Assembly: GCA_964394435.1 (NCBI GenBank) | Contig: CAYMXN010000001.1 | Coordinates: forward strand, 235,928-299,927 | Source of the DNA: an uncultured Candidatus Saccharibacteria bacterium | GTDB lineage: Bacteria > Patescibacteriota > Minisyncoccia > UBA6257 > 1-14-0-10-44-23 | Length of the DNA: 64,000 bases | Direction: 5' to 3' | Shown: in pieces, positions 24,938 to 43,172 of the stretch | How the letters are laid out: every line of letters begins with the position of its first letter | How positions within the stretch are numbered: position 1 is the stretch's first letter | Made by a program: the position numbers and the translations under genes | The notes under the pieces: generated by a model | The model's input: only the letters and a program-made list of their open reading frames with translations | Databases searched by the model: none | Told to the model about the DNA's origin: nothing

Positions 24938-26302
24938 ATGAACCCATTCATTAAAATCCGCGCGCTAGCCCGTATTCCTGTGCTTATCCTTGGCGATATC
25001 GCTATTTTTTATGCTTCACTTTTTATCGCCTTAAGTATTCGCTATGGTCTCGCTCCACTTAGCCACCTTGCTGACCACTTGATTCCTTTTTCAATCGGAC
25101 TGCTCCTCTGGCTCGTTATCTCATACATCAGTGGCCTCTATGAGCGTGCTTCGCTTAAAAATACCTCGTCATTTTATGCGACCTTTTTAGTATCGCTGGT
25201 TATTGAGATGCTCGCACTTATCGCCCTCTTCTATTTAGTTCCGGCATTTGGCATCGCTCCAAAAGCAAACCTCTTTATTTTTACCGCTGTTTTTGCCGTA
25301 CTTGAAGCTATTTGGCGCGCCATACTTAATATCATATTGCGCGCAAGCGGTTCGCGCATACGGCTTATGTTTCTTGGTGCTAGCCACAACATGACCGAAA
25401 TCAAAGAACATCTTGAGCGCAATCCGCAGCTTGGATATGAAGTAATCACTTGGTACAGCGATGAGCCAACGCACCAGACCAGCGAACAGCTTTTACGCGA
25501 AATCGCTACTAAGCAAATCCACTTTGTTGTCGTTTCTGCACAGCTTGAAAAAACAAAAACGTTTAAAGACTTTGCGTATAAAAATGCGGTTAGTGGAGTT
25601 CCGCTTCTTAGTCTTGCAGTGCTCTACGAGCAAATCTTTTCCCGCGTATCACTGGCCGAACTTGAAGAGTCGTGGTCACTTAAAGATATAACGTATGAAG
25701 CTCGCCTGTACCAATCAATAAAGCGTGTTCTTGAACTTTTGGGCGTGCTCCTTATTGGAATTATTGCACTTCCCTTTGCGATTATTACCGCACTCGCCAT
25801 CCTACTTACTTCTCGCGGCCCTGTTTTTTATAAGCAGCGACGCGTTGGTAAACGAAAACAGCTTTTTTGGCTTTATAAGTTTCGTAGTATGTATGCTGAA
25901 AAAGAAAAAAACCCAGACGCTGATGCGAGTAAGCCAATTTGGACCAGCGGCAATGACCAACGCATCACTCCAGTTGGGAAGTTTATTCGCTTCACTCATC
26001 TCGATGAGCTTCCGCAGCTTATCAATATAGTAAAGGGAGAGATGTCGTTTATCGGCCCGCGCCCCGAGCGACCAGAATTTGACGCGGATTTAGAGCAAAA
26101 GATCCCGTACTACGAGCTCCGCTATCTCGCTAAGCCTGGTATTACCGGCTGGGCGCAAATCAACTATCGATACGGCGCATCGGTTGAAGACGCGTACGCT
26201 AAATTGCAGTACGACCTGTACTACCTTGCTCACCGATCACTGCTTTTAGATATTTCCATCCTGCTCAAAACTATTAAAAAGTTTTTTGTGCAGGTTGATT
26301 AA
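24938..26302 (+). CDS. polyprenyl-phosphate sugar phosphotransferase (WbaP/bacterial sugar transferase family)
   Basis: N-terminal TM helices. C-terminal motifs SRGPVFYKQRRVGK, LDELPQLINIVKGEMSFIGPRPERP. Confidence 0.85.
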   Translation: MNPFIKIRALARIPVLILGDIAIFYASLFIALSIRYGLAPLSHLADHLIPFSIGLLLWLVISYISGLYERASLKNTSSFYATFLVSLVIEMLALIALFYLVPAFGIAPKANLFIFTAVFAVLEAIWRAILNIILRASGSRIRLMFLGASHNMTEIKEHLERNPQLGYEVITWYSDEPTHQTSEQLLREIATKQIHFVVVSAQLEKTKTFKDFAYKNAVSGVPLLSLAVLYEQIFSRVSLAELEESWSLKDITYEARLYQSIKRVLELLGVLLIGIIALPFAIITALAILLTSRGPVFYKQRRVGKRKQLFWLYKFRSMYAEKEKNPDADASKPIWTSGNDQRITPVGKFIRFTHLDELPQLINIVKGEMSFIGPRPERPEFDADLEQKIPYYELRYLAKPGITGWAQINYRYGASVEDAYAKLQYDLYYLAHRSLLLDISILLKTIKKFFVQVD

Positions 26303-27223
26303 ATGAACAAGCGACTCAACATCATCGTAACGGGTGGCGCTGGATTTATCGGAAGCCATATCGTTGATCTCTATATTGCCGCCGGTCATCACGTTGCGAT
26401 AATCGACAACCTTTCAACTGGCTTCAAGAAGAATATTCATCCTCGAGCGCGTTTCTACCATGCGGATATTCGCGACAAACAAGCGATCGACAAAATTTTC
26501 GCCATCGAGCGGCCAGATATCGTAAATCATCAAGCGGCACTCGCTGCGGTAGTAAGTGGTGAAAAAAACCAAAATGCGGCGTATGAGATTAATGTGATTG
26601 GTACTATAAACCTCTTAACTACCCCTACCCCGATTAAACGGTTTATCTTCGCCTCAACTGGCGGAGCGATGTATGGACTTAATGCCCGGCCAAGACCAAC
26701 AAATGAAGAGGCGCCGCGCCGCCCAGTTTCTGCATACGGTTTTTCAAAACTCCTCGCTGAACAGGCGGTTATCCACTTTGCCCGCGAACGAAAATTTTCG
26801 TATGTAATCCTCCGTCCGGCAAACGCTTTTGGTCCTCGCCAAAATCCAAAAGGAGAAGCTGGAGTTGTCGCCCTATTCACCTATATGATGAAACACGATA
26901 TCCAGCCAATCATCTATAATAAGAAGGCTACTCGCGATTATGTATATGTTGGTGATATTGCCGCTCTTAATCTCGCCGCGCTCTCCGGACCAAAGAATGT
27001 AATTTGTAATGTTGGGACCGGCATTGAGACTTCGAACGAGCAGATTTTTAAGCTCATTGCGAAGCAGTGCGGCTATGCGGGTAAGCCAGTTTATAAACTA
27101 GCGCGACAAGGCGAAGTGCTTCATGCAGCGCTTGATGCTCGCTATGCGCGCAAAATCTTTAAGTGGAAACCAGCTGTCAATCTAACTACAGGTATTACCC
27201 ACGTATATGCTCAAAAAGATTAA
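26303..27223 (+). CDS. NAD-dependent sugar epimerase/dehydratase (SDR family)
   Basis: VTGGAGFIGSH Rossmann motif, YxxxK region. Confidence 0.8.
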   Translation: MNKRLNIIVTGGAGFIGSHIVDLYIAAGHHVAIIDNLSTGFKKNIHPRARFYHADIRDKQAIDKIFAIERPDIVNHQAALAAVVSGEKNQNAAYEINVIGTINLLTTPTPIKRFIFASTGGAMYGLNARPRPTNEEAPRRPVSAYGFSKLLAEQAVIHFARERKFSYVILRPANAFGPRQNPKGEAGVVALFTYMMKHDIQPIIYNKKATRDYVYVGDIAALNLAALSGPKNVICNVGTGIETSNEQIFKLIAKQCGYAGKPVYKLARQGEVLHAALDARYARKIFKWKPAVNLTTGITHVYAQKD

Positions 27224-28679
27224 ATCACTTCTTTTTACCAACACGACCGCCGGACAAACGATTGTTAAGAATACGTTTTGGTTAATGACGGGCGAGATCG
27301 TCGGACGCTTAATTCGCGCCGGCATCGTTATTTACTCTGCGCGCGTCTTAGGTGCCGGTGAGTATGGAATTTTTTCCTATGCGATATCGGTAGCCGCATT
27401 TATTACTGTCTTTTCTGACATCGGACTCTCGGCCGTACTCACCCGCGAAACATCAAAAAGTCCCGAACTACGCAGTAAGTATCTTGCTAATTCATTTTTT
27501 CTTAAAGTAATCCTTATTAGCCTGAATATTCTTTTTGTACTCTTTGTTGTCCCGTTTATCTCTAAACTCGGTGGCGTTAATCAGCTCCTTCCGCTGGTCG
27601 CTGTGATGATTATTTTTGAAAGCCTACGCGAATTTGGCTTTGGTTTTAATCGTGCACTGGAAAAAATGGAGCGTGAGGCGTATGTGAAAGTAATTCTCAA
27701 TCTCTCCATAGCCGCCCTAGGCTTTATCGCGATTTTTACTCACCCAAACGCCTACACACTGCTTATCGCATATGTACTTGGCGCCCTTATTGGATTTTTA
27801 GCCACCGTATGGTTTTTGCGCGCTCACCTGCGTGAACTTTTTGGTGCGATTGATTTTTCGTTTGCGTGGCACATATTCAAAAACGCCTGGCCGGTCGGAC
27901 TCCTCACTGTCTTAGGTGCGGTAATGATCAATACCGATATGATTATGCTTGGCTGGTGGCTTGATAAAAATCCAGTCGGGTATTACGCTGCTGCACAGAA
28001 AATTATCTTACTACTCTACATTATTCCAACACTGCTTTCCTCGGCAGCATTTCCGGCATTTGCCCGTCTTGCGCACAGCTTAAATCATGAGCGCTTCCGC
28101 GCCATCCTTGAGCGAACGATCGCCTTCGCCTTTTTAATCGGCATTCCGCTCGCTTTTGGCGGACTCATCTTGGCGCGGGAAACAATTGCGCTTCTCTATG
28201 GCACCGAATATCTCCCGGCCGCAACGACATTTCGCATTCTGATGGCAACGATGTTTGTCGTTTTCCCAAGCACGATTATTACTAACGCACTTTTTGCTTA
28301 CAATCAGCAAAAACGTTTTATTTGGTACGTTGGTCTTGGTGCGCTCTCAAACGCGTTTTTTAACTATCTCTTTATTCCACGCTACGGCATCGAGGGAGCG
28401 GCGGTTGCTACGCTTAGCTCTCAAATTCTTTCTAACTTTTTGATTTGGCGAGCGATGAAAAAAGTAAACTACTTCGTGATTATTCCGCGCCTCACGCGTA
28501 TCTGTATTGCCGCCCTACTTATGTCCTTGTATGCGTATGGCGCGAATCAACTCGGGGTTTCTGCCCTTACTATTATCCCTACAAGCATCGCCCTCTATGG
28601 TGTTTTGATCGTTTTATTTAAAGAACCACTGCTTCGCCAGGCGAAGCAGGCTGTTTCAGTAGACGAGTTAAAGGGCTAA
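27207..28679 (+). CDS. oligosaccharide flippase (Wzx/MOP superfamily)
   Basis: 490 aa, about 12-14 TM helices, polysaccharide-biosynthesis-protein-like. Confidence 0.7.
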   Translation: MLKKIKSLLFTNTTAGQTIVKNTFWLMTGEIVGRLIRAGIVIYSARVLGAGEYGIFSYAISVAAFITVFSDIGLSAVLTRETSKSPELRSKYLANSFFLKVILISLNILFVLFVVPFISKLGGVNQLLPLVAVMIIFESLREFGFGFNRALEKMEREAYVKVILNLSIAALGFIAIFTHPNAYTLLIAYVLGALIGFLATVWFLRAHLRELFGAIDFSFAWHIFKNAWPVGLLTVLGAVMINTDMIMLGWWLDKNPVGYYAAAQKIILLLYIIPTLLSSAAFPAFARLAHSLNHERFRAILERTIAFAFLIGIPLAFGGLILARETIALLYGTEYLPAATTFRILMATMFVVFPSTIITNALFAYNQQKRFIWYVGLGALSNAFFNYLFIPRYGIEGAAVATLSSQILSNFLIWRAMKKVNYFVIIPRLTRICIAALLMSLYAYGANQLGVSALTIIPTSIALYGVLIVLFKEPLLRQAKQAVSVDELKG

Positions 28680-28716
28680 CTCCTCCTTGCTTTTTTATTC
28701 CTGCCCGTTCGCTCTA

Positions 28717-29538
28717 TTACTTTTTATATCTCCGAAAAACTGCGAGACGCAGCTTATCTGAAATGAGCGATCCAAACGCCGAGTATGCGAGGTACCGCAT
28801 CCAGGCTTTCAGTTTTGAGATACGATAGCGCGGATACAATCCTTTATAGCGACTTATAATCGCAATCGCTTGGCGAAGCTGGGCGCGTTTATTACTCCAA
28901 CTGATTGAGCCGCTACGCAAGGTAAACCCCAGGGCGTAATCAGGCAGGTTGGCAAGTTTACCCATTGTGCCGAGCTTGAGCCAAAGATCATAGTCTTCAA
29001 CACGATGCGTAAGGGGGAGTTCGCTATACCCTCCCGCCGCTACTGCTGCTAGGCGACGGAAAACAACGCTCGCGTGCGCGAAACAATTGCGATATAAGAT
29101 ACGGCTACGAATCTGCCCATCTGTTTGTGGATTTTGATACCTAAAAAGCTCTTTACTGTTTTCATCAACTACCATTACCGCAGTACCAACCAGCACGTGA
29201 TCTGGATTACTTTCGAGAAACTCTATTTGATTTTTAAGCTTATTAACATCTGTCCAAAAATCATCATCATCAATACGAGCGATAAACTCACCAGTCGCCT
29301 CTTTAAGTCCGTGATTAAGCGTTTTTTGGATACCAAGATTGTGCGGATTACGTAGTGGGCGGACGCGCTTATCAAGCTGCGCGTACTTTTGAATTAAAAG
29401 CGGCGTTTTATCGGTCGAACAGTCATCGATGATGATTAACTCAAAATCACGATAGCTCTGTACGAGCACGCTTTTAATTGCACGCTCGATAAAGCGTTCG
29501 CCATTGTAGACCGGCAGCAAAATTGAGACACGTGTCAT
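28717..29538 (-). CDS. glycosyltransferase family 2
   Basis: SILLPVYNGERFIERAIKSVLVQSYRDFELIIIDDCSTD. Confidence 0.8.
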   Translation of the reverse strand: MTRVSILLPVYNGERFIERAIKSVLVQSYRDFELIIIDDCSTDKTPLLIQKYAQLDKRVRPLRNPHNLGIQKTLNHGLKEATGEFIARIDDDDFWTDVNKLKNQIEFLESNPDHVLVGTAVMVVDENSKELFRYQNPQTDGQIRSRILYRNCFAHASVVFRRLAAVAAGGYSELPLTHRVEDYDLWLKLGTMGKLANLPDYALGFTLRSGSISWSNKRAQLRQAIAIISRYKGLYPRYRISKLKAWMRYLAYSAFGSLISDKLRLAVFRRYKK

Positions 29539-29540
29539 GA

Positions 29541-30614
29541 TTATTTATTTTCAACCCCCATCACCTTAAAGATGTGATCAAACCGATTAGCGTACGTATG
29601 CTCGCGAACGGTGCGCTCATATCCAGCTTTACGAATCGCCTCGCGTTCCTCGTCATGTGCGAGATAATACTTCGCCTTCTCGATTAAGTCGGCGGTGTCG
29701 GTAAAAAGAATAATTTCCTTGCCAGGCACGAAATACTCCTCAACATTATCAGCGCGGTCGGTCATAAGTAGTGCGCCAGAACCAGGAACTTCAAAGTTTC
29801 TCGTTTTGATTTGGTACGTATTGAGCCGGTCGATGTATGCGCGCAGTTGATCAAGCCAGGTACCAATTGGATTCATATGATACTTACCCGCGCTATCTTT
29901 ATTGATAAAGATACGAGCGATACCTTTCAAGTTGAATGCTCCGGAACTACGGGCAAAATTTAGATTTATTTTACTCGCGCAAAACGCTTTAATCATCGCC
30001 TCGCCAAAAATACGGCCGTTTGGCCACCCTGGGCCAAAACACTCTACCTTAACTCCTGCATCTTTCAGTGCTTGAATAATCTCCGGGCGCTTACCATATG
30101 GCTGGCCGATAAATGAGACGTCGTACTGATATGGGACATCGTAACGCTTATAGAGCGACGGACTGCACGCCCACTGCGTTTTAATCACATTGGTTAAGCC
30201 GGCTTTTTTATAGCGAGGAAGCGAGCCATTATCGGTTGTCGATACCCAGTGAAACAGCGGTGCGTAGTGCTTACTGAAGTTATGAAATCTCCAGTGATCG
30301 TCGCAATACCAGTTATAGGTTATCGCGCCAGATTTTTCTTTAATCTCCTTCAGCGTTTCTTTGTTAATTTCGTCGTTAAACAACACAAAGAAGCAGAGGT
30401 CTGGCTTTTGCTCATATACTGTTTTTAATAAGCGAGCGTTCATCTGCTCTTTACCCACTTCATGCATCACCTCATCAAACGGGAAGTAGATAACCTTATG
30501 CTTACCACCCTGATACGCAACCAATGACTCGTAAAAGTTGTAATGCTCGAGACTATAGCCCCCGCGCTTCGGATCGCCATAATCGTACTTCATTGCGACA
30601 TACAGGATTTTCAT
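29541..30614 (-). CDS. hypothetical glycosyltransferase-like protein (CgeB/DUF3880-like?)
   Basis: 357 aa in a glycan locus. Weak family assignment. Confidence 0.35.
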   Translation of the reverse strand: MKILYVAMKYDYGDPKRGGYSLEHYNFYESLVAYQGGKHKVIYFPFDEVMHEVGKEQMNARLLKTVYEQKPDLCFFVLFNDEINKETLKEIKEKSGAITYNWYCDDHWRFHNFSKHYAPLFHWVSTTDNGSLPRYKKAGLTNVIKTQWACSPSLYKRYDVPYQYDVSFIGQPYGKRPEIIQALKDAGVKVECFGPGWPNGRIFGEAMIKAFCASKINLNFARSSGAFNLKGIARIFINKDSAGKYHMNPIGTWLDQLRAYIDRLNTYQIKTRNFEVPGSGALLMTDRADNVEEYFVPGKEIILFTDTADLIEKAKYYLAHDEEREAIRKAGYERTVREHTYANRFDHIFKVMGVENK

Positions 30615-30618
30615 ATGC

Positions 30619-31677
30619 TTATTTTTTAGTTGCGTTTGTGTGCTGGGCGATCATTTCGCGCAATGTGCGCTCGAGGTCGTATTCGTATTTCCAGTCCGGA
30701 TAGTGCTTTTGGAACTTAGATACATCAGAGATATACCAGATGTGGTCACCGCGACGGTTCTGATCAACATATTCATAATCAGCCTTTTTACCGCTAATCT
30801 TTTCAATCATCTCGATCGCCTCAATCATCGAACAGTTACTAAACCGACTGCCGCCCATATTGTATACCTCTCCTTTTCGCGGATTGAGATAGAAGTGATA
30901 GAACGCGTTAATTAAATCGTACGAGTGGATATTGTCGCGAACCTGCTTACCCTTATACCCAAAAATTTTATATTTTTTACCGCTTACTACGCATTTGACG
31001 AGATAGCTCAAGAATCCGTGCAGCTCTACGCCAGCGTGCGACGGACCAGTTAAGCAGCCACCGCGAAAAACCGCCGTCTTAAGTCCAAAATACTTCCCGT
31101 ACTCCTGCACGAGAATGTCTGCCGCAACCTTACTCGCACCAAACAAGCTATGAAGTGAGTCGTCGATACTCATCGTCTCATCAATACCTTTTTGATACGG
31201 GTGCTTCGGATCTATCTCCCAGCGCTTCTCGGTTTCGATAAGCGGAAGCGTATTTGGTTTATCTCCATATACCTTATTTGTCGAGGTAAAAATAAAGACT
31301 GCTTCAGGCGAGTAGAGCCTAAAGTGCTCGAGGATGTTCAGTGTACCGTTTGCGTTAACCGTAAAATCGGTAAGTGGCTCTTTTACAGCCCAGTCGTGCG
31401 ATGGCTGCGCTGCGGTGTGAATAATTAAATCAAACTTATGCTCCTTGAAGAGCTTAGTGAGCTCCTCTTGGTTGCGAATATCAAAATTATAGTGCTTAAA
31501 ATGCTGATGTTTATCTTTGAGTTGTTGATTGCGACTCTTCGTACTCCCATCTGGGCCGAAGAAGTAGCTACGCATATCGTTATCAATACCCACAACCTCA
31601 AAGCCCTTGTCGGCGAAAAAGCTGACGGCTTCTGAACCAATCAGCCCTCCCGAGCCTGTAATTAACACTTTTTTCAT
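30619..31677 (-). CDS. NAD-dependent epimerase/dehydratase (CDP-sugar 2-epimerase-like)
   Basis: [16 protein letters not shown] Rossmann motif. 352 aa. Confidence 0.7.
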
Positions 31678-31709: not shown

Positions 31710-32852
31710 CTACTTTTTGCTAACCAGCTCTCCCGCTAATTGCTCATACCTTTCGACGATGCGCTCCCATCGATGCTCCTGATCCCAAAGCTCGAATGCG
31801 CGCTGTGTAGAGCGATGTCTTAGTGCATCATCGTTAAGCAGTCGATCAGCTATATGCGCCATTTCTTCCGGCGTCTGTACGATAGAGAGATACTCTTTGT
31901 GATCAGCAACATTACCAACTGGTCGAGTGATAAATGACACCTTGCTGGCAAATGACTCATACATTACCAGTGGCGCACACTCAACTCGTGAGCCAAACAA
32001 AAATAAATCGGCGTTTTTATACGCAGAAATAACCTCGGCTCTATTTTTCCCAGAAATAATTTTAATGCGAGGATTTAGCAGGCTGGCTATCCAACACGGC
32101 AGATACCCTGTAATGATATGCGCGAGTTTTTTTACTCCCTTGCTGGTCGGCAGTTCACCGATGAGTGCGAGCGTGACATCTTTGTTACGCATTTTTTTAA
32201 TGGCCTTAATAACGAAGCGCTGGCCTTTCGCGGCGTAAAAATTCGCAACAGTTATGGCGAGGTATTTTGTTCGTATATGTGCTCGCTCTCTAAAGCGATA
32301 GAGATCGGATGGGATAAACTCGTCAGCAGAAGCACCATTTGGAATATATACCGCCTTCGCACCCACTCCGTGCTCGTCGCCAAATACCTTGTCCTGATAA
32401 CTCATCGACATATAGACGAGCGAGTCGTATTGCGCAAGATACGCCGGAAGTTGCGCAAAATATGCTTGATAGATCGGATTATGTAGTCCCGAGTACCCGC
32501 ACGGGATAAGCACTTTTTTTGCTTTGATTTTTGATAATACTGCGAACGCAAGATCGGTCGACCAGTTTTGCGCCGCATAATTAATCACCACATCAAAATC
32601 TCCTTGGAGATATTGATGATAACGTGCCTGCTCATCGCTTGCTCCTACGAACCCTTTGGCAAGATTTCCTCCAAGTTTAAAACTCTCAACTCGCACGCCA
32701 TTGAGTGCGGTGAAATTGCGCTCACTCGTGTACGATGTGGCGACCGAAACTTGATGTCCTTTTTTAAGAAGCCCTTCCGCGAGCTGCTTCACCACCTGCT
32801 CAACCCCACCTTTTCGTGGCTCATAAAACTCAACCGTAAAAAGTATTTTCAT
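31710..32852 (-). CDS. glycosyltransferase family 4 (GT-B)
   Basis: MKILFTVEFYEPRKGGVEQVV N-terminus. E…E C-terminal motif region. Confidence 0.7.
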   Translation of the reverse strand: MKILFTVEFYEPRKGGVEQVVKQLAEGLLKKGHQVSVATSYTSERNFTALNGVRVESFKLGGNLAKGFVGASDEQARYHQYLQGDFDVVINYAAQNWSTDLAFAVLSKIKAKKVLIPCGYSGLHNPIYQAYFAQLPAYLAQYDSLVYMSMSYQDKVFGDEHGVGAKAVYIPNGASADEFIPSDLYRFRERAHIRTKYLAITVANFYAAKGQRFVIKAIKKMRNKDVTLALIGELPTSKGVKKLAHIITGYLPCWIASLLNPRIKIISGKNRAEVISAYKNADLFLFGSRVECAPLVMYESFASKVSFITRPVGNVADHKEYLSIVQTPEEMAHIADRLLNDDALRHRSTQRAFELWDQEHRWERIVERYEQLAGELVSKK

Positions 32853-33646
32853 AAGCGAATTAACGTTCCGATTACGACCTTGGCAGCATTAACAACGTAT
32901 TTACGCATGAGCGTAAAGCGGTTATATCCAAATCGCCTGTTTTTCAAAAAATCAGCATACAGCCAACATAGGCGCTTATAGCTCTTTACTCGGCTTTTTG
33001 AAGTCTGCTCTGGGTGAATTCGGTAGCGCATCAAAGGCTCATTTATGGCCTTAAATTGGCCCGTAGGAGCGATTTTGAGCCATAAATGGTAATCCTCTAT
33101 AGCGAGTCCACGCCCCTCTTCGCTAAACATACCCGCACGCTCAATTGCCGACTTGCGCGCCACAACGGTCGAGGCGGGAATAAAGTTTTTTTGAATGAGT
33201 CTGTCGGCAACCGCACCAACCGATAGTTCACCGGTCATTTGCGAGTACAGCGCATACGTTTGCTGCGCGGTGCCGAAAAATTCTGCATCAGAATATACAA
33301 GATGTACGTTGATATCATCAAATAGCGGCATCTGCTTGGCGAGCTTTTCACTCTGCCAAAGATCGTCGGCATCTAATAACGCGATAAACTCACCTTGAGC
33401 AATTTTAATACCCGCATTACGCGCCGCGCCCGTGCCTTTATTTTTCTGATAGATATATGTAATCGTTTTTGCATCAATATACGACTGCAAAACTTCGCGC
33501 GTGGTATCAGTTGAACCATCGTCAATAACAATAATCTCGATTGGCTTGTATGTTTGCGCACGAACCGAATCAATCGCCTCGGCGATGTACTTTGCTGCGT
33601 TATAGCTAGGGATAATTACCGAGACGAGCTTGCTCATACTAGCCAA
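32849..33646 (-). CDS. glycosyltransferase family 2
   Basis: VSVIIPSYNAAKYIAEAIDSVRAQTY…IIVIDDGSTD. Confidence 0.8.
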   Translation of the reverse strand: MASMSKLVSVIIPSYNAAKYIAEAIDSVRAQTYKPIEIIVIDDGSTDTTREVLQSYIDAKTITYIYQKNKGTGAARNAGIKIAQGEFIALLDADDLWQSEKLAKQMPLFDDINVHLVYSDAEFFGTAQQTYALYSQMTGELSVGAVADRLIQKNFIPASTVVARKSAIERAGMFSEEGRGLAIEDYHLWLKIAPTGQFKAINEPLMRYRIHPEQTSKSRVKSYKRLCWLYADFLKNRRFGYNRFTLMRKYVVNAAKVVIGTLIRL

Positions 33647-34318: not shown

Positions 34319-34939
34319 TTATTTCTTAATCATAATGATATTATTTCCAAGCTCAAAAGTAATTCGCATCGAGACTTTGCCACTCAATAACTTCACCTCA
34401 TCAATAGTCGGATATCCATTTTGACCGGTAAATAGATGAGCATCATCAACGAGCACGATACTTTCAGGGCCATACTTCCAATTAAGAATTGCTGAAATTT
34501 CTTTTCGAAGCGGAGAGTCTTCTGCTGCGCGCGCCGTGTCGCCACCCGAGTAATGACCATCAAGCCAAAATATAGCCGGCTGATTAAGCTGCGCTAAGAT
34601 CTTTGAGAGCTCGACGCCACTATCGCCATATACAATTGATATATTAGAGTCCTGCCTAAATCGATGCACCGCAGCCTCGTAATATGATTTGGCTAACTCA
34701 ATTGAATATAGATGAGTGAAGTTCGACTTGAGCGCGCTTATCGTGTCACCCATATACGTCCCTGTTTCAACGAAAACCTTTATATTGGATTGCTTAGCTA
34801 TGGTGCGAATACATTTTTGCTTAGCGATACTTGGCGCAAAATCAGCCTTGCCTTTTATGAGCCAGCCTACATATGAAAGTCGAGCGAGAACTATTCGCTT
34901 GAAATAGGAGAGGCCAAGTTTTTGCAATAGTTTTTTCAT
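34319..34939 (-). CDS. class I SAM-dependent methyltransferase (TylF/CmcI-like)
   Basis: VETGTYMGDT motif. Weak family assignment. Confidence 0.45.
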   Translation of the reverse strand: MKKLLQKLGLSYFKRIVLARLSYVGWLIKGKADFAPSIAKQKCIRTIAKQSNIKVFVETGTYMGDTISALKSNFTHLYSIELAKSYYEAAVHRFRQDSNISIVYGDSGVELSKILAQLNQPAIFWLDGHYSGGDTARAAEDSPLRKEISAILNWKYGPESIVLVDDAHLFTGQNGYPTIDEVKLLSGKVSMRITFELGNNIIMIKK

Positions 34940-34940
34940 A

Positions 34941-35867
34941 TTAGATCAATTTAAGATATTCTTCCGCGGCTTTGCGATCGGTAAAGTTTTGTAAGTGATA
35001 TGCGCGAGGGCGAAATGTATCAAGCTTTTTGAGAAAACTATCCAATTTTACACTCAACTCTTGCTCGTCCTTAAACTCAATACCAACTTCGTCACTTAAG
35101 TACGGGGCTGAACTTGCGCCCATCCACTCATAATCTCCCGCCTTAAACAATCGCCTGTCCCACACAAGCGTTGGCACGTCCATCATCCACGCCTCATGAA
35201 TCGCAATACCCTGACTCTCGGACTCACTCAAAAAGATAAGCGCTTTCGCCCGGTTCAATTCGCTTAGGTATGCGCGCCGACTATATGCTCCATATCGCAC
35301 AACCTTATATGGTAACCCCCTCTTTTGTAGTTCAGAAATAATATATTCAAATAATGCGGTCGGACATTTCTTCTGGTACACAATAAATGTACCGCGTTCA
35401 CTTGAAAGTTTGGTTATCGGCGCGGTTTCTACGCCGGCTGCCCAAATACTTAGCGCCTGCGCACGAGTTGGTGCGAGTGAGGCGAGCCAGTCTTTCGCCC
35501 AGCCTGATGGAGCGAGCAATGTATCAACTTGTTCGCTAAAAATAATCCCATTGTGCTCTTTGGGCATCGCGATATTAGGACCGGCGATTATTTTTTTAAT
35601 CTTACCTTCCTTTTTTGCCTGTATAGCCCAGCGCAACCCCTCTACCGAACTAAGAACACCAACAACTGCATCTTGCGGTACTCGCACCGGATTGTACTTA
35701 TACGAGACTCCCAGCTCGTTTAACCCGCGCAGAAGACTTTGCGCTACCGCACGTGGTCCGCGCGTTCTGCGACTTACCTGTTTGAGGCGTGATTTAATAT
35801 ACCCAACTAGACCTGGGCGCTCGGTAAGTAACACTAATGGCGTATTGTTAGATATTGATGTACTCAT
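34941..35867 (-). CDS. hypothetical protein of the glycan locus
   Basis: Start moved to MSTSISNNTPLVL to limit overlap. No motif recognised. Confidence 0.35.
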   Translation of the reverse strand: MSTSISNNTPLVLLTERPGLVGYIKSRLKQVSRRTRGPRAVAQSLLRGLNELGVSYKYNPVRVPQDAVVGVLSSVEGLRWAIQAKKEGKIKKIIAGPNIAMPKEHNGIIFSEQVDTLLAPSGWAKDWLASLAPTRAQALSIWAAGVETAPITKLSSERGTFIVYQKKCPTALFEYIISELQKRGLPYKVVRYGAYSRRAYLSELNRAKALIFLSESESQGIAIHEAWMMDVPTLVWDRRLFKAGDYEWMGASSAPYLSDEVGIEFKDEQELSVKLDSFLKKLDTFRPRAYHLQNFTDRKAAEEYLKLI

Positions 35868-36534
35868 TTTTAAACGCGTCGTGCCAGCGTAAACCAAGAT
35901 TCGCCAACGTCTTAAATGCCCATTTTTTCTTTTTTGCATACTGAAAGAGATCCGTCTCAAGACTCACCCTTGTTTCTGCTAACTGCTTCAGATTTGCCTG
36001 TTCACAATACTCACGTAGCGCCTCCACTGGACAACTAAATAAACCTGTCCAAAACTGCTTAAGCGTTTTTGAGAATATTCGCATAAACTTAACTTTGACG
36101 CTCGTTACTTTAAGATACGTTTCCGGCGCGGCCACGAATTGATCAAAAAATGATATATCGACCATCTCTTGCCGTGGCTCAAAATGAATGACGTATGTAT
36201 ATCCGCCCGCCGCTAAGCTAGGCAAGACCCCTCTCCACGCAGCGATTACCCCACACCCCTTATTTACCCGCCCATACTCGTTATCATAAAACGTTTTTTC
36301 ACCACACAGATTTGGCAAAGCTTTGATTGCGCTCATAAGCCGCTGATCATATTGCTTCTCGGGTTCGATCGTATTGTCTACCCAAAATACATCAAAGTCG
36401 TTTGGATACTTTTGTATAACCTCGGCAATTCTACTAAACCCGGCGCAGTATTGCCGGATGCGCTCATCATGATCTGCTGTACTACCGAGCGTTGTAATAA
36501 ATGCCGTTGGAAGAACAATCGCAGTTTTTTTCAT
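35848..36534 (-). CDS. hypothetical protein of the glycan locus
   Basis: 228 aa, no motif recognised. Confidence 0.35.
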   Translation of the reverse strand: MKKTAIVLPTAFITTLGSTADHDERIRQYCAGFSRIAEVIQKYPNDFDVFWVDNTIEPEKQYDQRLMSAIKALPNLCGEKTFYDNEYGRVNKGCGVIAAWRGVLPSLAAGGYTYVIHFEPRQEMVDISFFDQFVAAPETYLKVTSVKVKFMRIFSKTLKQFWTGLFSCPVEALREYCEQANLKQLAETRVSLETDLFQYAKKKKWAFKTLANLGLRWHDAFKNEYINI

Positions 36535-36537
36535 ATC

Positions 36538-37671: not shown

Positions 37672-37674
37672 AGC

Positions 37675-38262
37675 TTAGTGTTTTCGAATTAACGTAATGG
37701 AAGGAAATGGCGCAACAGTAAAATACTCGATATCTCCGCGCTGTTTCGCAAATTGCTTTAACCAGTCAGCAATCGGCTGTTTCTTAAACTTAACCATCCA
37801 CTCAACCTTATCGCGCTCTGGCGAGCCTCCTTCGATAATAATGCACTGCCGAACCTTATCGATCCATTTGGGAATAATCTCCTCGAGAATCTCTCCCTTG
37901 TTACTTACATCGACGTGCAGTATATCAACCATGTCGTGTTCTTGGTCGACTCCAACCGCATCACGCAATGTTAGTTGAACGACATCTTTTACTTCTTTTA
38001 GGTTTTCAGCAGCTACGGCTTGCGAGCACGAGCTAAACTCGTACTTCTCCCAGAGGTCGTAGCAAAATAACTTCCCTTTTTTGTTGTCAGTTAGTCCACG
38101 TGCGATATGATACGCGCTGTACCCATCTTTTGTACCAAGCTCTACTACTTTTTCTGGTTGGTAGGTTTTGATAAGTGCGTAAAATAACTCGCCGTATGCG
38201 TGCTCCTCGTATGATGAGTGCCATTTTGATTGGCCCATTTTATCTTTCCATTGTTCAGGCAT
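37675..38262 (-). CDS. class I SAM-dependent methyltransferase-like protein
   Basis: VVELGTKDGYSAYHIARG motif I-like. Confidence 0.45.
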   Translation of the reverse strand: MPEQWKDKMGQSKWHSSYEEHAYGELFYALIKTYQPEKVVELGTKDGYSAYHIARGLTDNKKGKLFCYDLWEKYEFSSCSQAVAAENLKEVKDVVQLTLRDAVGVDQEHDMVDILHVDVSNKGEILEEIIPKWIDKVRQCIIIEGGSPERDKVEWMVKFKKQPIADWLKQFAKQRGDIEYFTVAPFPSITLIRKH

Positions 38263-38268
38263 ATAGTT

Positions 38269-39117
38269 TTATTTATTTTTTATTTTTCGCTTTATCCACC
38301 GAAATCCATCAAGCAGGATTGGTGGAATAAACGCCTTTATTACATCTTTAGTAGTAGTTAAATCTACCTCGCGCTTTACTGCTTCGTCGCCAACTGGCCG
38401 CGCTTGAAACAGTGTATTGTGATTCTCGATTCCTTTATTAATCTCCTCGACTGGACGGCCATTCGTATAGTAGTACAAGGCGAGCGACTTACGACTCATT
38501 CCTGGCGGGCAGGCTAACGGCTCTGGATGGCCGTGGTACGTAAAATCATTGGTAGAGAAAATAGCCATGCGATTAAATAATGGCAAAATCTTTGCTTGCG
38601 ATTTTTTCATCTCCTTATCCCACAACTCAAAATGGCCACCGTACTCCTCTTTCCAGTTCTTATTAAGATATACGAGCACGTTAATACGCCGATCGAGATT
38701 GTTATAGTGATGCTTATTAAAATCAGCGTGGATTTTTAACCAACCACCCGGCTGAATCTCATGAAATCCACCCCCATCAAAATATGCGTCCGCAATGAGA
38801 TTTTGAATTCCGGTAAGCTCGGAAAGGAAATCAAGGAATGGCTGTGAGTTTAAAAAGTGAGCAAATTCACGCGTTGCTGGACCAAACTGATCCTCAACGA
38901 GTGTTGCGGCCTTTTTATTTTCGTATTTATTCGCAAATTGTACCGGCGCCTCTTTCTGGAGCGCAGGAAATTCCTTTAAAACCCGATCGAGCAACTCGGT
39001 TGGAAAAAAATTATCAAAATACGTATGCGGAAACGGCTGCGCGCCCATATAGGCCTGATGCTTTTGTTTTCCAAGTTCGCGAAGTTCTTGAGCTGTTTTT
39101 CCGATAAGTGTTTTCAT
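38269..39117 (-). CDS. 2OG-Fe(II) oxygenase-superfamily protein
   Basis: HADFNKHH (HxD…H) and YGGHFELW regions. Weak assignment. Confidence 0.45.
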   Translation of the reverse strand: MKTLIGKTAQELRELGKQKHQAYMGAQPFPHTYFDNFFPTELLDRVLKEFPALQKEAPVQFANKYENKKAATLVEDQFGPATREFAHFLNSQPFLDFLSELTGIQNLIADAYFDGGGFHEIQPGGWLKIHADFNKHHYNNLDRRINVLVYLNKNWKEEYGGHFELWDKEMKKSQAKILPLFNRMAIFSTNDFTYHGHPEPLACPPGMSRKSLALYYYTNGRPVEEINKGIENHNTLFQARPVGDEAVKREVDLTTTKDVIKAFIPPILLDGFRWIKRKIKNK

Positions 39118-39139
39118 ACGAGTGGGTAATTGTTATTTT

Positions 39140-40711
39140 TTAATTGAGCCAATGCGTTTTGTATGCGTCGCGATTCCATCCTGTATACAAGTAATCCATT
39201 TGATCGACCTTGTCGTAGTTATATGTTTTGAATCGAAAATTTGTCCAGTCTGCGAACTGCGGGCGCTCTTGGCAAATACAACCCGCAATCGCATCCATTC
39301 CAGTCCCGATGTCGATAAACACTGCATCACTGTACGCTTTTAATCGATGCAGTATTGCTGTTTTTGCGTGCCCCATACCGACAAGGAATATTTTAGCTTT
39401 CGAATTCTGAATTTGCGCACCAATTTTAGCCATTAACTCTTCTGGATAATCGGCCGCCCCTTTTTGCGGTACTCCGATGTATTCAGTAAATGATGGCGTT
39501 CCTAGATACGCTTGGTATGCGGGCTGCTTCATAAGCTCGCTCACTAGCTCCATCTTGTGTTCATTGCCAATCAACCCAATCTGCCCCGAAAACTCCCTAA
39601 AAATCCACCGACTGGCAATAAGAGCATAAATCGCATCGTGTGGAATTGATGGACTATATAAATTCTCAAATACTCCCTGCGCATACTTCTTGAGCGCAGA
39701 AAATACCTTCCAGTCTCCTAGACGAATTAATCGGCGTAAAAATATACGATTAAGCCATAATGGACGCGTAACAAGATACCAAAGCATCTTACGGCGATAG
39801 CGCGGCTCTGGATGATACGAGATAAGGTCATTTTCAAATATGCCGTATCGAAATGGAGCGATGTCGATCTTGTCATAACTCAGCGTACTACCTCTTCGCC
39901 CTGGAGTGGCGCTTCCAACTGCTTTTTTACGCAAAAAGTAGAATTCTCCATCCGACACACGAATTATCGTTCCTCCTCCGAGCACTGCAAGTTGCTTGAT
40001 TTTCTTTTTAAGTGAATCGAAACGTTCTTGAAAACTTGCGCGAAACATTGAATACCCGAGCTCAATTTGCACATCACGAAGACCCCAAATTGTGTAAAAT
40101 CGTCGCGCAGTCTTGCGTCGCTTCTGATAAATCGTCACAGTTTCTGCCCACCACTGATGCCCGTATGGACTTACTGTACTCTTGAGCTCCGCCCGGAATC
40201 GCTTAGTTGCGTTTTTCTCAATCCAAAATCCACGCTTTTTTATCTGTGACTGAATATATCGTGCAGTTCGTGGATTGAAATGCTGCTCGCCGGGATGCTT
40301 TGACCAACTTAAAATGAGAATATCCTTAGTTATTCTCGCAAGGTTATCTAAGAAAATCGCCTCATGTTCTTTTTGCAAATGCTCTCCGACTTCTGTTGAA
40401 TTTACGACCGAAAACGCCTGATCCATACCAACAATCGGCTGACGAAGATCTCTCACTTCGATACAATCTTTAATTTCTGTCGCCGCATTTTGCTTACCCC
40501 ATTCAAAACCCTCCAGCCCCTTTAATGCCAAGTGCGGATAATGCGCCTTAAGATTTTCAAGTAATCTCCCGTTTGAGCAGCCGACGTCGATAAATGACTC
40601 AAACTGTTTTAAGTCGAGCGCGTGCGATAGTGCTTTTCGATATAAATTGTAAAAACGCATCTGACGGCGATACTCATTTTCCTGATACATATGTGAAACG
40701 TCTTGCATCAT
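39140..40711 (-). CDS. methyltransferase-domain protein with large C-terminal domain of unknown function
   Basis: FIDVGCSNGRLLENL motif I. 523 aa. Confidence 0.45.
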   Translation of the reverse strand: MMQDVSHMYQENEYRRQMRFYNLYRKALSHALDLKQFESFIDVGCSNGRLLENLKAHYPHLALKGLEGFEWGKQNAATEIKDCIEVRDLRQPIVGMDQAFSVVNSTEVGEHLQKEHEAIFLDNLARITKDILILSWSKHPGEQHFNPRTARYIQSQIKKRGFWIEKNATKRFRAELKSTVSPYGHQWWAETVTIYQKRRKTARRFYTIWGLRDVQIELGYSMFRASFQERFDSLKKKIKQLAVLGGGTIIRVSDGEFYFLRKKAVGSATPGRRGSTLSYDKIDIAPFRYGIFENDLISYHPEPRYRRKMLWYLVTRPLWLNRIFLRRLIRLGDWKVFSALKKYAQGVFENLYSPSIPHDAIYALIASRWIFREFSGQIGLIGNEHKMELVSELMKQPAYQAYLGTPSFTEYIGVPQKGAADYPEELMAKIGAQIQNSKAKIFLVGMGHAKTAILHRLKAYSDAVFIDIGTGMDAIAGCICQERPQFADWTNFRFKTYNYDKVDQMDYLYTGWNRDAYKTHWLN

Positions 40712-40719
40712 AAATTTAG

Positions 40720-42246
40720 CTATATACTTCTAGGAATTTTTATATACGAACGAATAAGTCGCCAATCGCTTTCTTCAAAGAACCCAAGCACGCGATAGAG
40801 TCCGATAAACACACCACCCGAAAGCCCACCGCAGAGCACGGTCAAAAAAAGAGTTGTCGTTAGTGGAAGTATAAACCATTTCATGAGTACGTAATACATA
40901 ACCCCGGTTATGAGCAACTTCGAAATGAGTTTTGTATGAAACGCAATGCTATCAGTTAAGCCAAAAAATCGGCGCTCACCAAAATACAGCACAAAAGGCA
41001 TTGGCGCTAAACTCGCAAGGTATGCGTATGCGGCACCGGTGATGCCGTACGCTGGTAGCCACCAAGCAAGAAAGACGACGTTTAGCACCAAAAAGAGGAG
41101 CGTGTATTGCGCAAGGTGCTTCACCTTTCCCATGCCGAGCATAAAATGCCCAAATGAGGTAAAAATCCCGAGAATAAAATAAGTTACTGCGAGGATATAT
41201 AGCCCGGTTAGACTCTGCGCGAGGAAATCCTGACCGACCCAGTATTGTAAGATTGGCTTACCAAATGCGATAACAATACTCATAAGCGCAAACCCGATTA
41301 CCGAAACTAAACGCAGCGTTTTACGGTAAATATGTCGTAAGCGCTCATGCTCGCTATTAGCTGAAAGACTCGAAGATACGGGCAAAAAAATACTTGTTAA
41401 ACTTCCGACCGTTCCCTGAATCTTCTGACTAACGGTTCCACTAATATTGTAGTAAGAAACCGCGGCTGGCCCCAAAATCGTACTGATAAGCACTTTATCG
41501 AGCTGAAACAGAAGCGTTGCCGCTGACTCATGCACATACGCATACACATTTAGCTTCAAGTAAGGCAAAAAATATTTCTTTGAATACATAATTCGAATCG
41601 GAATCTCTGGGATAATTTTTCTAAGTGCAAGATAGTAGCTTACAAGCAGTCCGATATTAGTGACTACCTGCATCGCAATGAGACTCAAAACGCCAAATCC
41701 CAAGTCGAGCAATCCAATCATGCCAAGATTAAGCACGATCATGCCGCTTAGATAGATCTTGGTATACACATCGGCTCTATGCGACGCGGTGATCGCGCCC
41801 GTAAAGGCCGAGCACAAACAGCTGAACATAAACCCCAGACCAGCAAGTATAAAGATAATTCTTGCCTGTGCGTGTTCGGCGAGCGGAATCTTGAGTACAT
41901 CAAGACCGTAAAATCCGACCAAGCTTGAGCCTATAAGTCCAATCACGCCAACCCCCAACAGAAGCATGAGCGTCGAACCAATCACTTCTTTTACTCCCTC
42001 ACTCCGCTTATGTCCGTGATATTCCGATACTACCTTTGCGACACCATATGAAAGGCCAAACGTAAGCAGGCTAAAAAACGTAGTAATAACGCTCGCCAAC
42101 ACAAACAATCCATATCGCTCGATGCCAAGCTTATGAATGATGAGTGGAGTTAAGAATATCGTGAAGAAGATTGGAACCACGTACGACAAAAACCCATAAA
42201 ATGAGTTTTTGGCTGTTCGTTTTGAGAGTGACTGAACTGATTCCAT
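40720..42246 (-). CDS. second oligosaccharide flippase (Wzx/MOP superfamily)
   Basis: 508 aa, about 14 TM helices. Confidence 0.65.
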   Translation of the reverse strand: MESVQSLSKRTAKNSFYGFLSYVVPIFFTIFLTPLIIHKLGIERYGLFVLASVITTFFSLLTFGLSYGVAKVVSEYHGHKRSEGVKEVIGSTLMLLLGVGVIGLIGSSLVGFYGLDVLKIPLAEHAQARIIFILAGLGFMFSCLCSAFTGAITASHRADVYTKIYLSGMIVLNLGMIGLLDLGFGVLSLIAMQVVTNIGLLVSYYLALRKIIPEIPIRIMYSKKYFLPYLKLNVYAYVHESAATLLFQLDKVLISTILGPAAVSYYNISGTVSQKIQGTVGSLTSIFLPVSSSLSANSEHERLRHIYRKTLRLVSVIGFALMSIVIAFGKPILQYWVGQDFLAQSLTGLYILAVTYFILGIFTSFGHFMLGMGKVKHLAQYTLLFLVLNVVFLAWWLPAYGITGAAYAYLASLAPMPFVLYFGERRFFGLTDSIAFHTKLISKLLITGVMYYVLMKWFILPLTTTLFLTVLCGGLSGGVFIGLYRVLGFFEESDWRLIRSYIKIPRSI

Positions 42247-42257
42247 CTCGGCTTTGC

Positions 42258-43172
42258 TTAACTCTTAATAATTCCCTCTTCCTTGAAATATTCAATGAGT
42301 CCCTGCTCAAAACTATATTGCGGCTTCCAGCCAAGGCCAATAATGCGAGTATTATCCATACGGTAGAAGCGATCATGTCCGGCGCGTTTTCCATCGTGAT
42401 AGGTAACTTTTTTCCCAGTTAACTCCTCGGCCTTCTTGATAAGATCAACTACCGTAAATCCATCACGATTGGTTATGTTGTAGGTTCGATCTCCCTTTTG
42501 CATCACTAGATCAATTACCGCGGGGATATTTTTCACATAGAGATATTCACGATATCCTTCTCCGCCGTTTTGTAGTGCGATCGAAAATCCCTCTTTAATA
42601 CTCTTAATTAAGAGCGGCATAATTTTTCGCGTATCCTGACGTGGTCCAAAAATATTACACATACGAATCTCGGTTGTTTTGTCGTGAATCTCTGGAAACG
42701 TATTATCATACGCGTACCGCATTAACGCACCCGCTGCTTTTGAGGCCGAATACGGATTGCGCGGGAAAAGTATCTCGGTTTCATTTTTTGCGTGCTCACA
42801 CTCGCCATACACCTCGTCTGTATTTACATACAATAACTTTTTCAACTTCGGAAGCTGTCGCGCAGCCTCAAACGCATTAAGGTTGCACATATAGTTGTTA
42901 TAAAACACCTCTTCCGGATGACGAATTGAGTGATCGACGTCGGTGATTGCCGCAGCATGAATAATCCAGTCAGGCTGCTCCTCGACAATTAGCTTCCAGG
43001 CAGATGGGCGACTAAAGTCTTCTTTTAAAAGCTTAAATTTACCCGTATGAATCTCTGGATGTGAACCAGTCGAGCAGTTATCAATCACAACTACGTCGTG
43101 ACCTTTTTCGACAAAATATTCAGTAACGTGACTAAAGATAAAACCGAGACCGCCCGTGATGACAATTTTCAT
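42258..43172 (-). CDS. NAD-dependent sugar epimerase/dehydratase
   Basis: MKIVITGGLGFIFSHV Rossmann motif. YxxxK present. Confidence 0.8.
   Translation of the reverse strand: MKIVITGGLGFIFSHVTEYFVEKGHDVVVIDNCSTGSHPEIHTGKFKLLKEDFSRPSAWKLIVEEQPDWIIHAAAITDVDHSIRHPEEVFYNNYMCNLNAFEAARQLPKLKKLLYVNTDEVYGECEHAKNETEILFPRNPYSASKAAGALMRYAYDNTFPEIHDKTTEIRMCNIFGPRQDTRKIMPLLIKSIKEGFSIALQNGGEGYREYLYVKNIPAVIDLVMQKGDRTYNITNRDGFTVVDLIKKAEELTGKKVTYHDGKRAGHDRFYRMDNTRIIGLGWKPQYSFEQGLIEYFKEEGIIKS

Follow-up and report, generated by a model that had tools for sequence, protein, structure and literature searches.

A Wzx-dependent surface-glycan locus of a Candidatus Saccharibacteria genome with a methyltransferase/GT-D/E-like fusion and a core cassette common with viral contigs

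The closest described systems include S-layer glycosylation (slg) loci and two gene clusters for viosamine-type sugars. The S-layer O-oligosaccharyltransferase (O-OTase) WsfB and PglL combine a Wzy_C domain with a C-terminal TPR region, S-layer genes adjoin slg clusters, and in WsaE the glycan chain is capped by an N-terminal methyltransferase domain that shares its polypeptide with glycosyltransferase domains (PMC2943079). The Mimivirus R132-L143 (Vio4NAc) cluster and the Pseudomonas syringae flagellin Vio island code for a 4,6-dehydratase, a pyridoxal phosphate-dependent C4-aminotransferase, a small class-I sugar methyltransferase, and glycosyltransferases, and make a methylated derivative of viosamine (4-amino-4,6-dideoxyglucose) (PMC10117803). 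The locus described here is from an uncultured Candidatus Saccharibacteria bacterium and lies in a 64,000-nucleotide stretch, referred to as the window (assembly GCA_964394435.1, contig CAYMXN010000001.1, positions 235,928 to 299,927); coordinates are numbered from the first nucleotide of the window, which comes from metagenome assemblies and a parent contig of 320 kb. To our knowledge, surface glycans are almost entirely undescribed in the candidate phyla radiation (CPR)/Patescibacteria, a group that relies on host-cell contact for its way of life, and literature searches found no paper describing CPR/Patescibacteria surface-glycan loci of this sort.

The surface-glycan locus spans ∼25 kb (∼24938-50034) and is Wzx dependent and of a known type; its new features are a methyltransferase/GT-D/E-like fusion, the unk228 protein family, and a core cassette common with viral contigs. 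With a probability of roughly 55%, this single locus directs synthesis of one lipid-linked oligosaccharide with a methylated 4-amino-4,6-dideoxyhexose, which is flipped and transferred en bloc, the favored acceptor being Ser/Thr residues of a surface protein. In the proposed scheme, a short-chain dehydrogenase/reductase (SDR3) would dehydrate a nucleoside diphosphate (NDP)-glucose to a 4-keto-6-deoxy sugar, and the DegT-family aminotransferase would aminate C4 to give a viosamine-like NDP-4-amino-4,6-dideoxyhexose, with this amino sugar or its neighbor being methylated by the methyltransferase MT24 and/or the fused methyltransferase. The fused GT-D/E-like domain (domain X) and unk308 would install the amino sugar, unk228 would act in the same unit, most likely as a divergent nucleotide-sugar-dependent transferase, and the GT2, GT4, and CgeB-like enzymes would add the remaining sugars to the primer provided by the initiating polyprenyl-phosphate sugar-1-phosphate transferase (PGT). 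The finished lipid-linked glycan would be flipped by a Wzx, and the Wzy_C+TPR protein would then transfer it en bloc in an S-layer/PglL-type O-glycosylation route, with the neighboring 1,089-aa surface protein as the candidate provider of the favored Ser/Thr acceptors.

The last step of this scheme relies on two adjacent genes. The Wzy_C+TPR protein is, from its domain matches, a candidate O-OTase, ligase, or polymerase, and the surface-protein gene is immediately upstream of it on the same strand, with a 133-nt gap. Apart from its hydrophobic segment and peptidoglycan-binding domain, the surface protein has a ∼950-aa remainder with 27% Ser+Thr and 23 N-x-S/T sequons, and it is the only real open reading frame (ORF) of the window with more than 18% Ser+Thr. 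Because all three of the slg/WsfB/WsaE features have counterparts here, en bloc O-glycosylation of a surface protein is favored, the adjacent 1,089-aa protein being the candidate acceptor. A serious alternative, although less likely, is that the product is a Wzx/Wzy-dependent heteropolysaccharide (a capsule, exopolysaccharide, or secondary cell-wall polymer), for which the same cytoplasmic reactions would make a repeat unit, a Wzx would flip it, the Wzy_C+TPR protein would be its polymerase, and the surface protein would be unrelated; the polymer would then be released, or joined to peptidoglycan by an enzyme whose gene is not in this locus. In favor of this, the canonical Wzx/Wzy gene set is represented (PGT, Wzx, Wzy_C-family protein, and several glycosyltransferases), PF04932 includes polymerase-like proteins, and the surface-protein gene is both separated from the Wzy_C gene by the gap noted above and not kept beside the cassette in related loci. 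However, the 64 kb contain no Wzz/polysaccharide co-polymerase (PCP), export component, or LytR-CpsA-Psr (LCP) ligase, a Wzy_C protein ending in a TPR region corresponds to what is described for the O-OTases WsfB and PglL (PMC2943079), and up to seven transferase domains are many for a single repeat unit, there being, beyond the PGT, up to six cytoplasmic glycosyltransferase domains (two GT2, GT4, CgeB-like, unk308, and the TagA/DUF1792-like domain).

The number of glycans made is a second question, as the locus codes for two flippases. Wzx1 and Wzx2, both of the Wzx/MOP superfamily, each have ∼12 to 14 hydrophobic segments but share just 25% identity over 166 aa and are thus not recent duplicates. 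The whole window has one initiating enzyme and one Wzy_C protein, and because of this single pair, one product with redundant or specialized flippases is more economical than two glycans. Related loci have one flippase each, of either Wzx1 or Wzx2 type, and homologues of Wzx2 (30 to 54% identity) adjoin the HTH_17 and fusion genes in loci L004, L005, L011, and L012. It is improbable that there are two adjacent independent pathways, with a simple PGT/epimerase/Wzx1 glycan from the plus strand and a Wzx2 glycan from the minus strand primed by an enzyme encoded elsewhere. The plus-strand unit (PGT, epimerase, and Wzx1) is convergent with the minus-strand operon, each has a promoter-like site and a flippase of its own, the two flippases being so dissimilar, and the cassettes of related loci have one flippase and mostly lack an adjacent PGT. 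Against this, there is the one initiating transferase and one Wzy_C protein, no glycosyltransferase for elongation is encoded in the plus-strand unit, and L011, the relative with the greatest synteny, has a PGT homologue beside a GT2 at the end of its cassette operon, which links PGT and cassette functionally. A reading of the DNA made from the sequence alone (the sequence-only reading) had offered two distinct lipid-linked glycans or a bipartite locus; the first is not supported by the counts of initiating enzyme, Wzy_C protein, and flippases per related locus, and the second stands in the sense of a mosaic. The locus clearly comprises a plus-strand initiation unit and, in the minus-strand operon, a conserved mobile amino-sugar cassette and a variable block (MT11, GT2b, GT4, SDR2, the CgeB-like glycosyltransferase, and GT2a).

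The core gene set consists of the dehydratase, the C4-aminotransferase, MT24, unk228, unk308, a methyltransferase, and the GT-D/E-like domain X. A scan of species-representative genomes gave 11 related loci, in which gene sharing was scored by tblastn. Domain X and DegT are each shared by 10 of these, unk308 by eight, the N-terminal methyltransferase by seven, the SDR3-like dehydratase by six, unk228 by five, and the HTH_17 gene together with Wzx2 by four; three have a Wzx1-like flippase instead, two have Wzy_C-TPR homologues near the cassette (L006 and L007), and one (L011) has the PGT, at the end of the gene array. Nine of the loci are in metagenome-assembled genomes (MAGs) labeled Saccharibacteria, Parcubacteria, or Pacebacteria, and MAGs with these labels also provide the nearest homologues of the fusion, Wzx2, the HTH_17 protein, DegT, unk228, and unk308; it is by this association that a CPR origin of the locus is probable. 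One locus, L012, is labeled Gammaproteobacteria; it is on a 772-kb contig and has the HTH_17 (60%) and Wzx2 (37%) genes, a stand-alone X, two DegT genes, and unk308. Unless this bin label is unreliable, the combination of cassette, regulator, and flippase does not belong strictly to CPR. That the window itself holds a diderm O-antigen/lipopolysaccharide (LPS) locus, in which the Wzy_C protein would serve as a ligase of WaaL type for lipid A-core, is very improbable: although Wzy_C is the O-antigen ligase family and L012 carries its gammaproteobacterial label, genes for lipid A, core, Lpt, or the outer membrane are missing from the window, at least five locus proteins have their nearest homologues in the CPR-type MAGs named above, and the adjacent surface protein is anchored via a peptidoglycan-binding domain. 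The HTH_17 protein is 54 to 64% identical in four related loci, where its gene is directly upstream of Wzx2. Its assignment as MamR was rejected, as the NCBIfam score of 46.7 bits (cutoff, 100) reflects a shared HTH and is not evidence for a magnetosome gene.

The same core is present in viral contigs. Domain X is found alone, as a ∼287-aa protein, in 71 IMG/VR contigs, including two giant-virus MAGs, and these 71 loci also have DegT (63 loci), an SDR3-like gene (50), a separate adjacent methyltransferase orthologue (21), MT24 (19), unk228 (17), and unk308 (13); Wzx, PGT, and Wzy_C genes are never beside X in them, within the fetched flanks. Association of the components follows DegT similarity: of the 18 loci whose DegT has 40% or more identity to that of the window, 16 have MT24 and 13 have unk228, compared with 3 and 4, respectively, of the 45 loci in which DegT identity is lower. 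The gene order unk228-MT24-DegT-x-X is seen repeatedly, examples being L021, L022, L029, L040, L075, L079, and L080. The viral cassettes (IMG/VR, L018 to L088) lie at, for example, positions 4917 to 8777 of L021 and 3959 to 15412 of L083. RmlA-, RmlB-, and cupin-like genes are immediately upstream of the L021 cassette, and the L021 flank matches T4-like cyanomyophages, so the viral label holds at least for this locus; the L057 flank has weak matches only. Among deposited phage genomes, X is present in a single uncultured marine virus and unk228 in none. An ambitious and distinctly tentative interpretation, which the analysis leaves as doubtful, is that the core is a previously unrecognized, horizontally mobile amino-sugar cassette of CPR, cyanophage-like marine viruses, and giant viruses, with two enzyme families of new activities and with the fold of X intermediate between GT-D and GT-E, and that in CPR it feeds a Wzx/O-OTase route onto a wall-anchored protein. 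If true, the cassette could shape episymbiont-host or phage-host recognition.

The fusion protein joins a class-I methyltransferase to domain X, and a two-domain AlphaFold model with an alignment of 28 family members has a pLDDT of 89.6 and a pTM of 0.90. In this predicted structure X is a GT-D/GT-E-like (TagA/DUF1792-like) glycosyltransferase-fold domain, with the TagA-like fold of GT-E (WecG/TagA/CpsF, GT26). The fusion is under the PF03808 gathering score (21.2 versus 27.4 bits), the WecG/TagA/CpsF model has only sub-threshold matches in 22 of the 28 family members (best E value, 1.6e-5), and GT-D-like matches, also sub-threshold, are seen in nine; a search of the X profile against PDB sequences gave nothing credible. 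A D254-G255-[E/D]256 motif directly after the first beta-strand is invariant in the family, of which 67 homologues were found in a word-indexed search, the named ones being from Parcubacteria/Paceibacterota; the motif may correspond to the Asp-X-Glu metal-binding motif of GT-D (DUF1792). The methyltransferase domain that is fused to X in this locus is a separate gene adjoining X in 21 viral loci.

Two further cassette members have little resemblance to described proteins. Unk308 and three of its homologues have recurrent weak Glycos_transf_1 matches, and unk228 has no match in Pfam, NCBIfam, PHROG, or PDB, including with a family profile. When 1.84 billion proteins were searched exhaustively with a profile of unk228, 242 family representatives were recovered. 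A motif-based viral scan found no relatives, and cultured phages had no match. In addition to its invariant acidic residues, unk228 has a near-invariant NKG-G motif, and its N-terminal pattern of a beta-strand, VDNT, and DNE loosely recalls GT-A enzymes; comparisons with domain X and with GT2b by hhalign are insignificant. Unk228 is perhaps a divergent nucleotide-sugar-dependent transferase, an assignment that stands slightly short of even odds, the alternative being an enzyme that modifies the 4-amino group. Three proteins fuse these components: P0353 (610 aa) is DegT plus unk228, P0333 (517 aa) is an unk308-like domain plus unk228, and P0378 (992 aa) is unk308-like plus X, with its DGE motif, plus unk228. 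All three are Asn/Lys rich, a composition indicative of AT-rich genomes. These fusions, with the fusion-fission pattern of X and its methyltransferase, place X, the methyltransferase, DegT, unk228, and unk308 in one functional unit.

The sugar-nucleotide enzymes point to the identity of the sugar. The three extended SDRs score 140 to 175 bits with PF01370. The nearest PDB relatives of SDR3 are dTDP-glucose 4,6-dehydratases, with 2hun first, and the best matches of SDR2, 9rl0 and 1orr, are CDP-tyvelose 2-epimerases that are far ahead of other SDRs. The closest structures to DegT, 4zwv/4xau, are presumably AtmS13, and its nearest relatives suggest C4 regiochemistry. The simplest reading of the sugar is most likely a methylated NDP-4-amino-4,6-dideoxyhexose. 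Neither Pfam nor NCBIfam searches identified acetyl- or formyltransferase families in the locus, and unk228 or an N-methyltransferase may act in place of an N-acyltransferase.

Several observations weigh against the en bloc transfer of a single glycan set out above. The Wzy_C domain fits a polymerase, a ligase, or an O-OTase alike, a Wzy_C-TPR gene is within 10 kb in only 2 of the 11 related loci, and none of the 11 has a homologue of the surface protein or a Ser/Thr-rich counterpart beside the cassette. Part of the pathway is missing from the window, which has no sugar nucleotidyltransferase, N-acyltransferase, Wzz, or LCP ligase. SDR1, SDR3, and DegT all score under their NCBIfam equivalog cutoffs, and their predicted substrates are therefore those of the nearest relative only; unk228 has neither fold nor family evidence; the single-glycan model leaves two flippases unexplained; and, for the CPR assignment, there is the gammaproteobacterial label of L012.

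The layout of the locus is compact. The segment from 24938 to 43172 has 18 tightly packed ORFs, matching the ∼18 genes of the sequence-only reading, of which the first three are on the plus strand and the other 15 on the minus strand; neighboring minus-strand genes are spaced by no more than 32 nt or overlap, an operon-like packing. The locus does not end at 43172, as had been supposed, and continues on the same strand with the HTH_17 gene, a GC-rich ORF, the Wzy_C+TPR gene, and the surface-protein gene to 50034. Pfam and NCBIfam searches reproduce, at scores well beyond those of chance matches, the initiating transferase, the two GT2 and one GT4 enzymes, the three SDRs, DegT, the 2-oxoglutarate (2OG)-Fe(II) oxygenase, and the two Wzx flippases, and both of the formerly unassigned glycosyltransferase-like proteins are GT-B-like, one being the CgeB-like Glyco_trans_1_2 protein and the other the divergent unk308. 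The "four or five" methyltransferases become three firm and one probable, so that four remains tenable and five does not; the methyltransferase call for the 523-aa protein was correct for that part of it, but had missed its C-terminal glycosyltransferase-fold domain. An aminated, methylated, and possibly hydroxylated glycan on a polyprenyl carrier is still what the gene content predicts, with a C4-aminotransferase-like DegT, a dehydratase-like SDR3, methyltransferases, and an oxygenase with an intact triad.

The small HTH_17 gene heads the 16-gene minus-strand operon and probably regulates it; GT2a is last. A promoter-like site and a hairpin with T-run lie at the two ends of this operon, and a second promoter-like site is near the PGT gene (Table 1); since total site counts are not above those of shuffled sequence, the individual promoter and terminator sites are only suggestive. 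An Rfam scan of 24000 to 51500 identified no structured-RNA families. GC content is 42 to 47% within the locus and 48% in the whole window; lowered GC is usual for glycan loci. Before 24938 are dsbA-like, trxB-like, and groES/EL genes, and past 50.5 kb are DeoR-like, alaS, sigma-70, dnaG, and CCA-adding enzyme genes. The annotated ORFs of the window include no nucleotidyltransferase, which is presumably encoded elsewhere, and no Wzz/PCP, LCP ligase, ABC exporter, or second initiating enzyme.

Table 1. Features of the glycan locus, with positions in the window; assignments are predictions from the evidence listed
Feature	Coordinates	Strand	Evidence or remarks
Promoter-like site	24867-24895	+	Near PGT gene; consensus match
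PGT, initiating polyprenyl-phosphate sugar-1-phosphate transferase, 454 aa	24938..26302	+	PF02397 211.7 bits; TIGR03025 352 bits, above cutoff 295.55; N-terminal hydrophobic segments
SDR1, GalE-like NDP-sugar 4-epimerase, 306 aa	26303..27223	+	PF01370 175 bits; best NCBIfam galE 148 bits, under equivalog cutoff
Wzx1, Wzx-type flippase 1, 490 aa	27207..28679	+	PF01943 122 bits; ∼12 hydrophobic segments
Hairpin + T-run	28649-28629	-	Downstream of GT2a, last gene of minus-strand operon
GT2a, GT2 glycosyltransferase	28717..29538	-	PF00535 123 bits; last gene of minus-strand operon
CgeB-like Glyco_trans_1_2 glycosyltransferase, 357 aa	29541..30614	-	PF13524 118.9 bits
SDR2, CDP-tyvelose-2-epimerase-like NDP-sugar epimerase, 352 aa	30619..31677	-	Best PDB 9rl0 (8.6e-43), 1orr (2.2e-39)
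GT4 (GT-B) glycosyltransferase, 380 aa	31710..32852	-	PF00534, PF13439, PF13579
GT2b, GT2 glycosyltransferase	32849..33646	-	PF00535 130.9 bits; 33% identical to GT2a
MT11, S-adenosylmethionine (SAM) methyltransferase (Methyltransf_11), 224 aa	33639..34313	-	PF08241 32.2 bits, above cutoff 21.2
unk206, probable methyltransferase (weak evidence)	34319..34939	-	NCBIfam Erm(45) SAM-binding region, E 1.8e-5
unk308, divergent GT-B (GT4-like) glycosyltransferase, cassette member	34941..35867	-	Recurrent weak Glycos_transf_1 matches; ESQG..EAW motif
unk228, unannotated family, cassette member	35848..36534	-	Invariant D53, E119, E193
DegT-family sugar C4-aminotransferase, 377 aa	36538..37671	-	PF01041 315.9 bits; PDB 4zwv/4xau 1.7e-101, CalS13 4.4e-91, then ArnB
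MT24, Methyltransf_24 methyltransferase, cassette member	37675..38262	-	PF13578 42.9 bits; weak COMT-type PDB matches
2OG-Fe(II) oxygenase, 282 aa	38269..39117	-	PF13640 (2OG-FeII_Oxy_3) 69.9 bits
Fusion, 523 aa: class-I SAM methyltransferase (∼residues 1-200) + domain X (∼215-523)	39140..40711	-	Predicted structure, family alignment
Wzx2, Wzx-type flippase 2, 508 aa	40720..42246	-	PF13440 64.5 bits + MatE; flippase of conserved CPR module
SDR3, NDP-glucose 4,6-dehydratase-like SDR, 304 aa	42258..43172	-	TIGR01181 174.9 bits, under cutoff 365; best PDB 2hun 3.5e-36
HTH_17 DNA-binding protein, putative regulator, 81 aa	43195..43440	-	PF12728 39.9 bits
Promoter-like site TTGACA-17-TAAAAT	43448-43476	-	11/12 matches, consensus only; best of region; directly upstream of HTH_17 gene
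GC-rich (61%) ORF, possible start ATG at 44263	43571..44365	-	Codon-position GC 0.64/0.43/0.76 marks coding frame
Wzy_C + C-terminal TPR membrane protein, 744 aa	44397..46631	-	PF04932 76.8 bits, residues 201-365; TPR families 474-722; ∼10-14 hydrophobic segments
Wall-anchored Ser/Thr-rich surface protein, candidate glycan acceptor, 1089 aa	46765..50034	-	Hydrophobic segment 11-29; PG_binding_1 79-130

The tailoring genes differ in how widely they are shared. MT24 belongs, as judged from its matches, to the cation-dependent catechol O-methyltransferase (COMT)-like class; that it is a window-specific insertion was ruled out, as the cassettes of viral loci regularly include it. A homologue of MT11 comes after the unk308 homologue in L004, and the CgeB-like protein has a 39% identical homologue in the CPR locus L011. 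Unk206 and its L011 homologue have Methyltransf_24 matches at E values of 0.1 to 0.15, and unk206 has zero PDB matches. The 2OG oxygenase is catalytically intact by its residues, with H130-x-D132...H195 and R209 invariant among 14 sequences (mean column identity, 65%), and it is locus specific among CPR relatives, being present in none of the 11 related genome loci. It has more than 5,800 homologues, and its ∼60% identity to proteins of Bacteroidota and Cyanobacteria (Chitinophagaceae, Sphingobacteriales, and Nostocales), far above that of other locus proteins, suggests a tailoring enzyme gained by recent horizontal transfer; the two homologues whose neighborhoods were inspected adjoin glycosyltransferase, methyltransferase, or MBOAT genes.

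The GC-rich ORF between the HTH_17 and Wzy_C+TPR genes has no Pfam, PHROG, or Rfam match and is probably a foreign single-gene insertion; a public gene call in locus L001 on the opposite strand ("unk269," 43517-44326, plus strand, 269 aa) was rejected, by codon-position GC, as an antisense shadow of it. It lies in one of three ∼0.9-kb islands with 63 to 70% GC in the 48% GC window (7701-8700, 43501-44300, and 56001-56900), each with long ORFs on both strands, and codon-position GC identifies the real genes as 7750-8691 (plus strand; GC3, 0.97), 43571-44365 (minus strand), and 56143-57045 (minus strand). The three proteins are mutually unrelated, none has a PHROG match, and no Pfam family matches the second or the third; the islands look like single-gene acquisitions from high-GC donors. 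Elsewhere in the window, the alanyl-tRNA synthetase (51317-53104) is only 595 aa long, as the extended C-terminal region that usually follows the tRNA_SAD domain is missing, and a stand-alone 195-aa GGDEF diguanylate cyclase domain protein (17217-17804) has no sensor domain. The longest ORF for an HI0933-like flavoprotein (12550-13848; GTG start at 13848) overlaps tRNA-Ala (13799-13870) on the same strand, and the true start is therefore further downstream; this longest-ORF sequence has no exact copy in the protein collection.

Under an ordinary reading, this is one more strain-variable glycan locus. It is nonetheless a concrete, testable system, with a defined gene set, a candidate O-OTase, and a candidate acceptor protein, and its cassette draws attention to unk228 and the GT-D/E-like domain, two unannotated families that are tied by fusions and gene neighborhoods to amino-sugar transfer in bacteria, phage-like contigs, and giant viruses and are reasonable targets for enzymology and for improved annotation.

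The locus shares features with three kinds of known systems and departs from each. Like the slg loci of the Gram-positive bacteria Geobacillus stearothermophilus (wsa) and Paenibacillus alvei (wsf), and like PglL/PilO-type O-glycosylation systems, it has a lipid-carrier route, a WsaP-type PGT, and packed glycosyltransferase genes, with a surface-protein gene beside the cluster whose product may be an S-layer protein and is a candidate for glycosylation, and like WsfB and PglL it has a Wzy_C protein with a C-terminal TPR region. Unlike G. stearothermophilus, which has a Wzm/Wzt ABC transporter, it has two Wzx flippases and no ABC transporter, and the rml genes of slg loci are absent. The fusion resembles WsaE in having a methyltransferase domain N-terminal to a glycosyltransferase domain in one protein (PMC2943079), although the fused domain here has a TagA/DUF1792-like fold and not a rhamnosyltransferase fold. 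The core enzyme logic, compared by enzyme class and with the sugar deduced here from the genes, is that of the Mimivirus R132-L143 cluster and the P. syringae Vio island, but there is no recognizable L142/VioB-type N-acetyltransferase, and unk228 and the GT-D/E-like domain are not described in the paper on those systems (PMC10117803). With canonical Wzx/Wzy O-antigen and capsule loci it shares the PGT, Wzx, and Wzy_C-family proteins, several glycosyltransferases, genes for nucleotide-sugar tailoring, and a GC content under the genome average; the locus differs from these in its lack of Wzz and export machinery, its two flippases, and its TPR-fused Wzy_C protein, and in a host that is probably an ultra-small, monoderm CPR bacterium without LPS.

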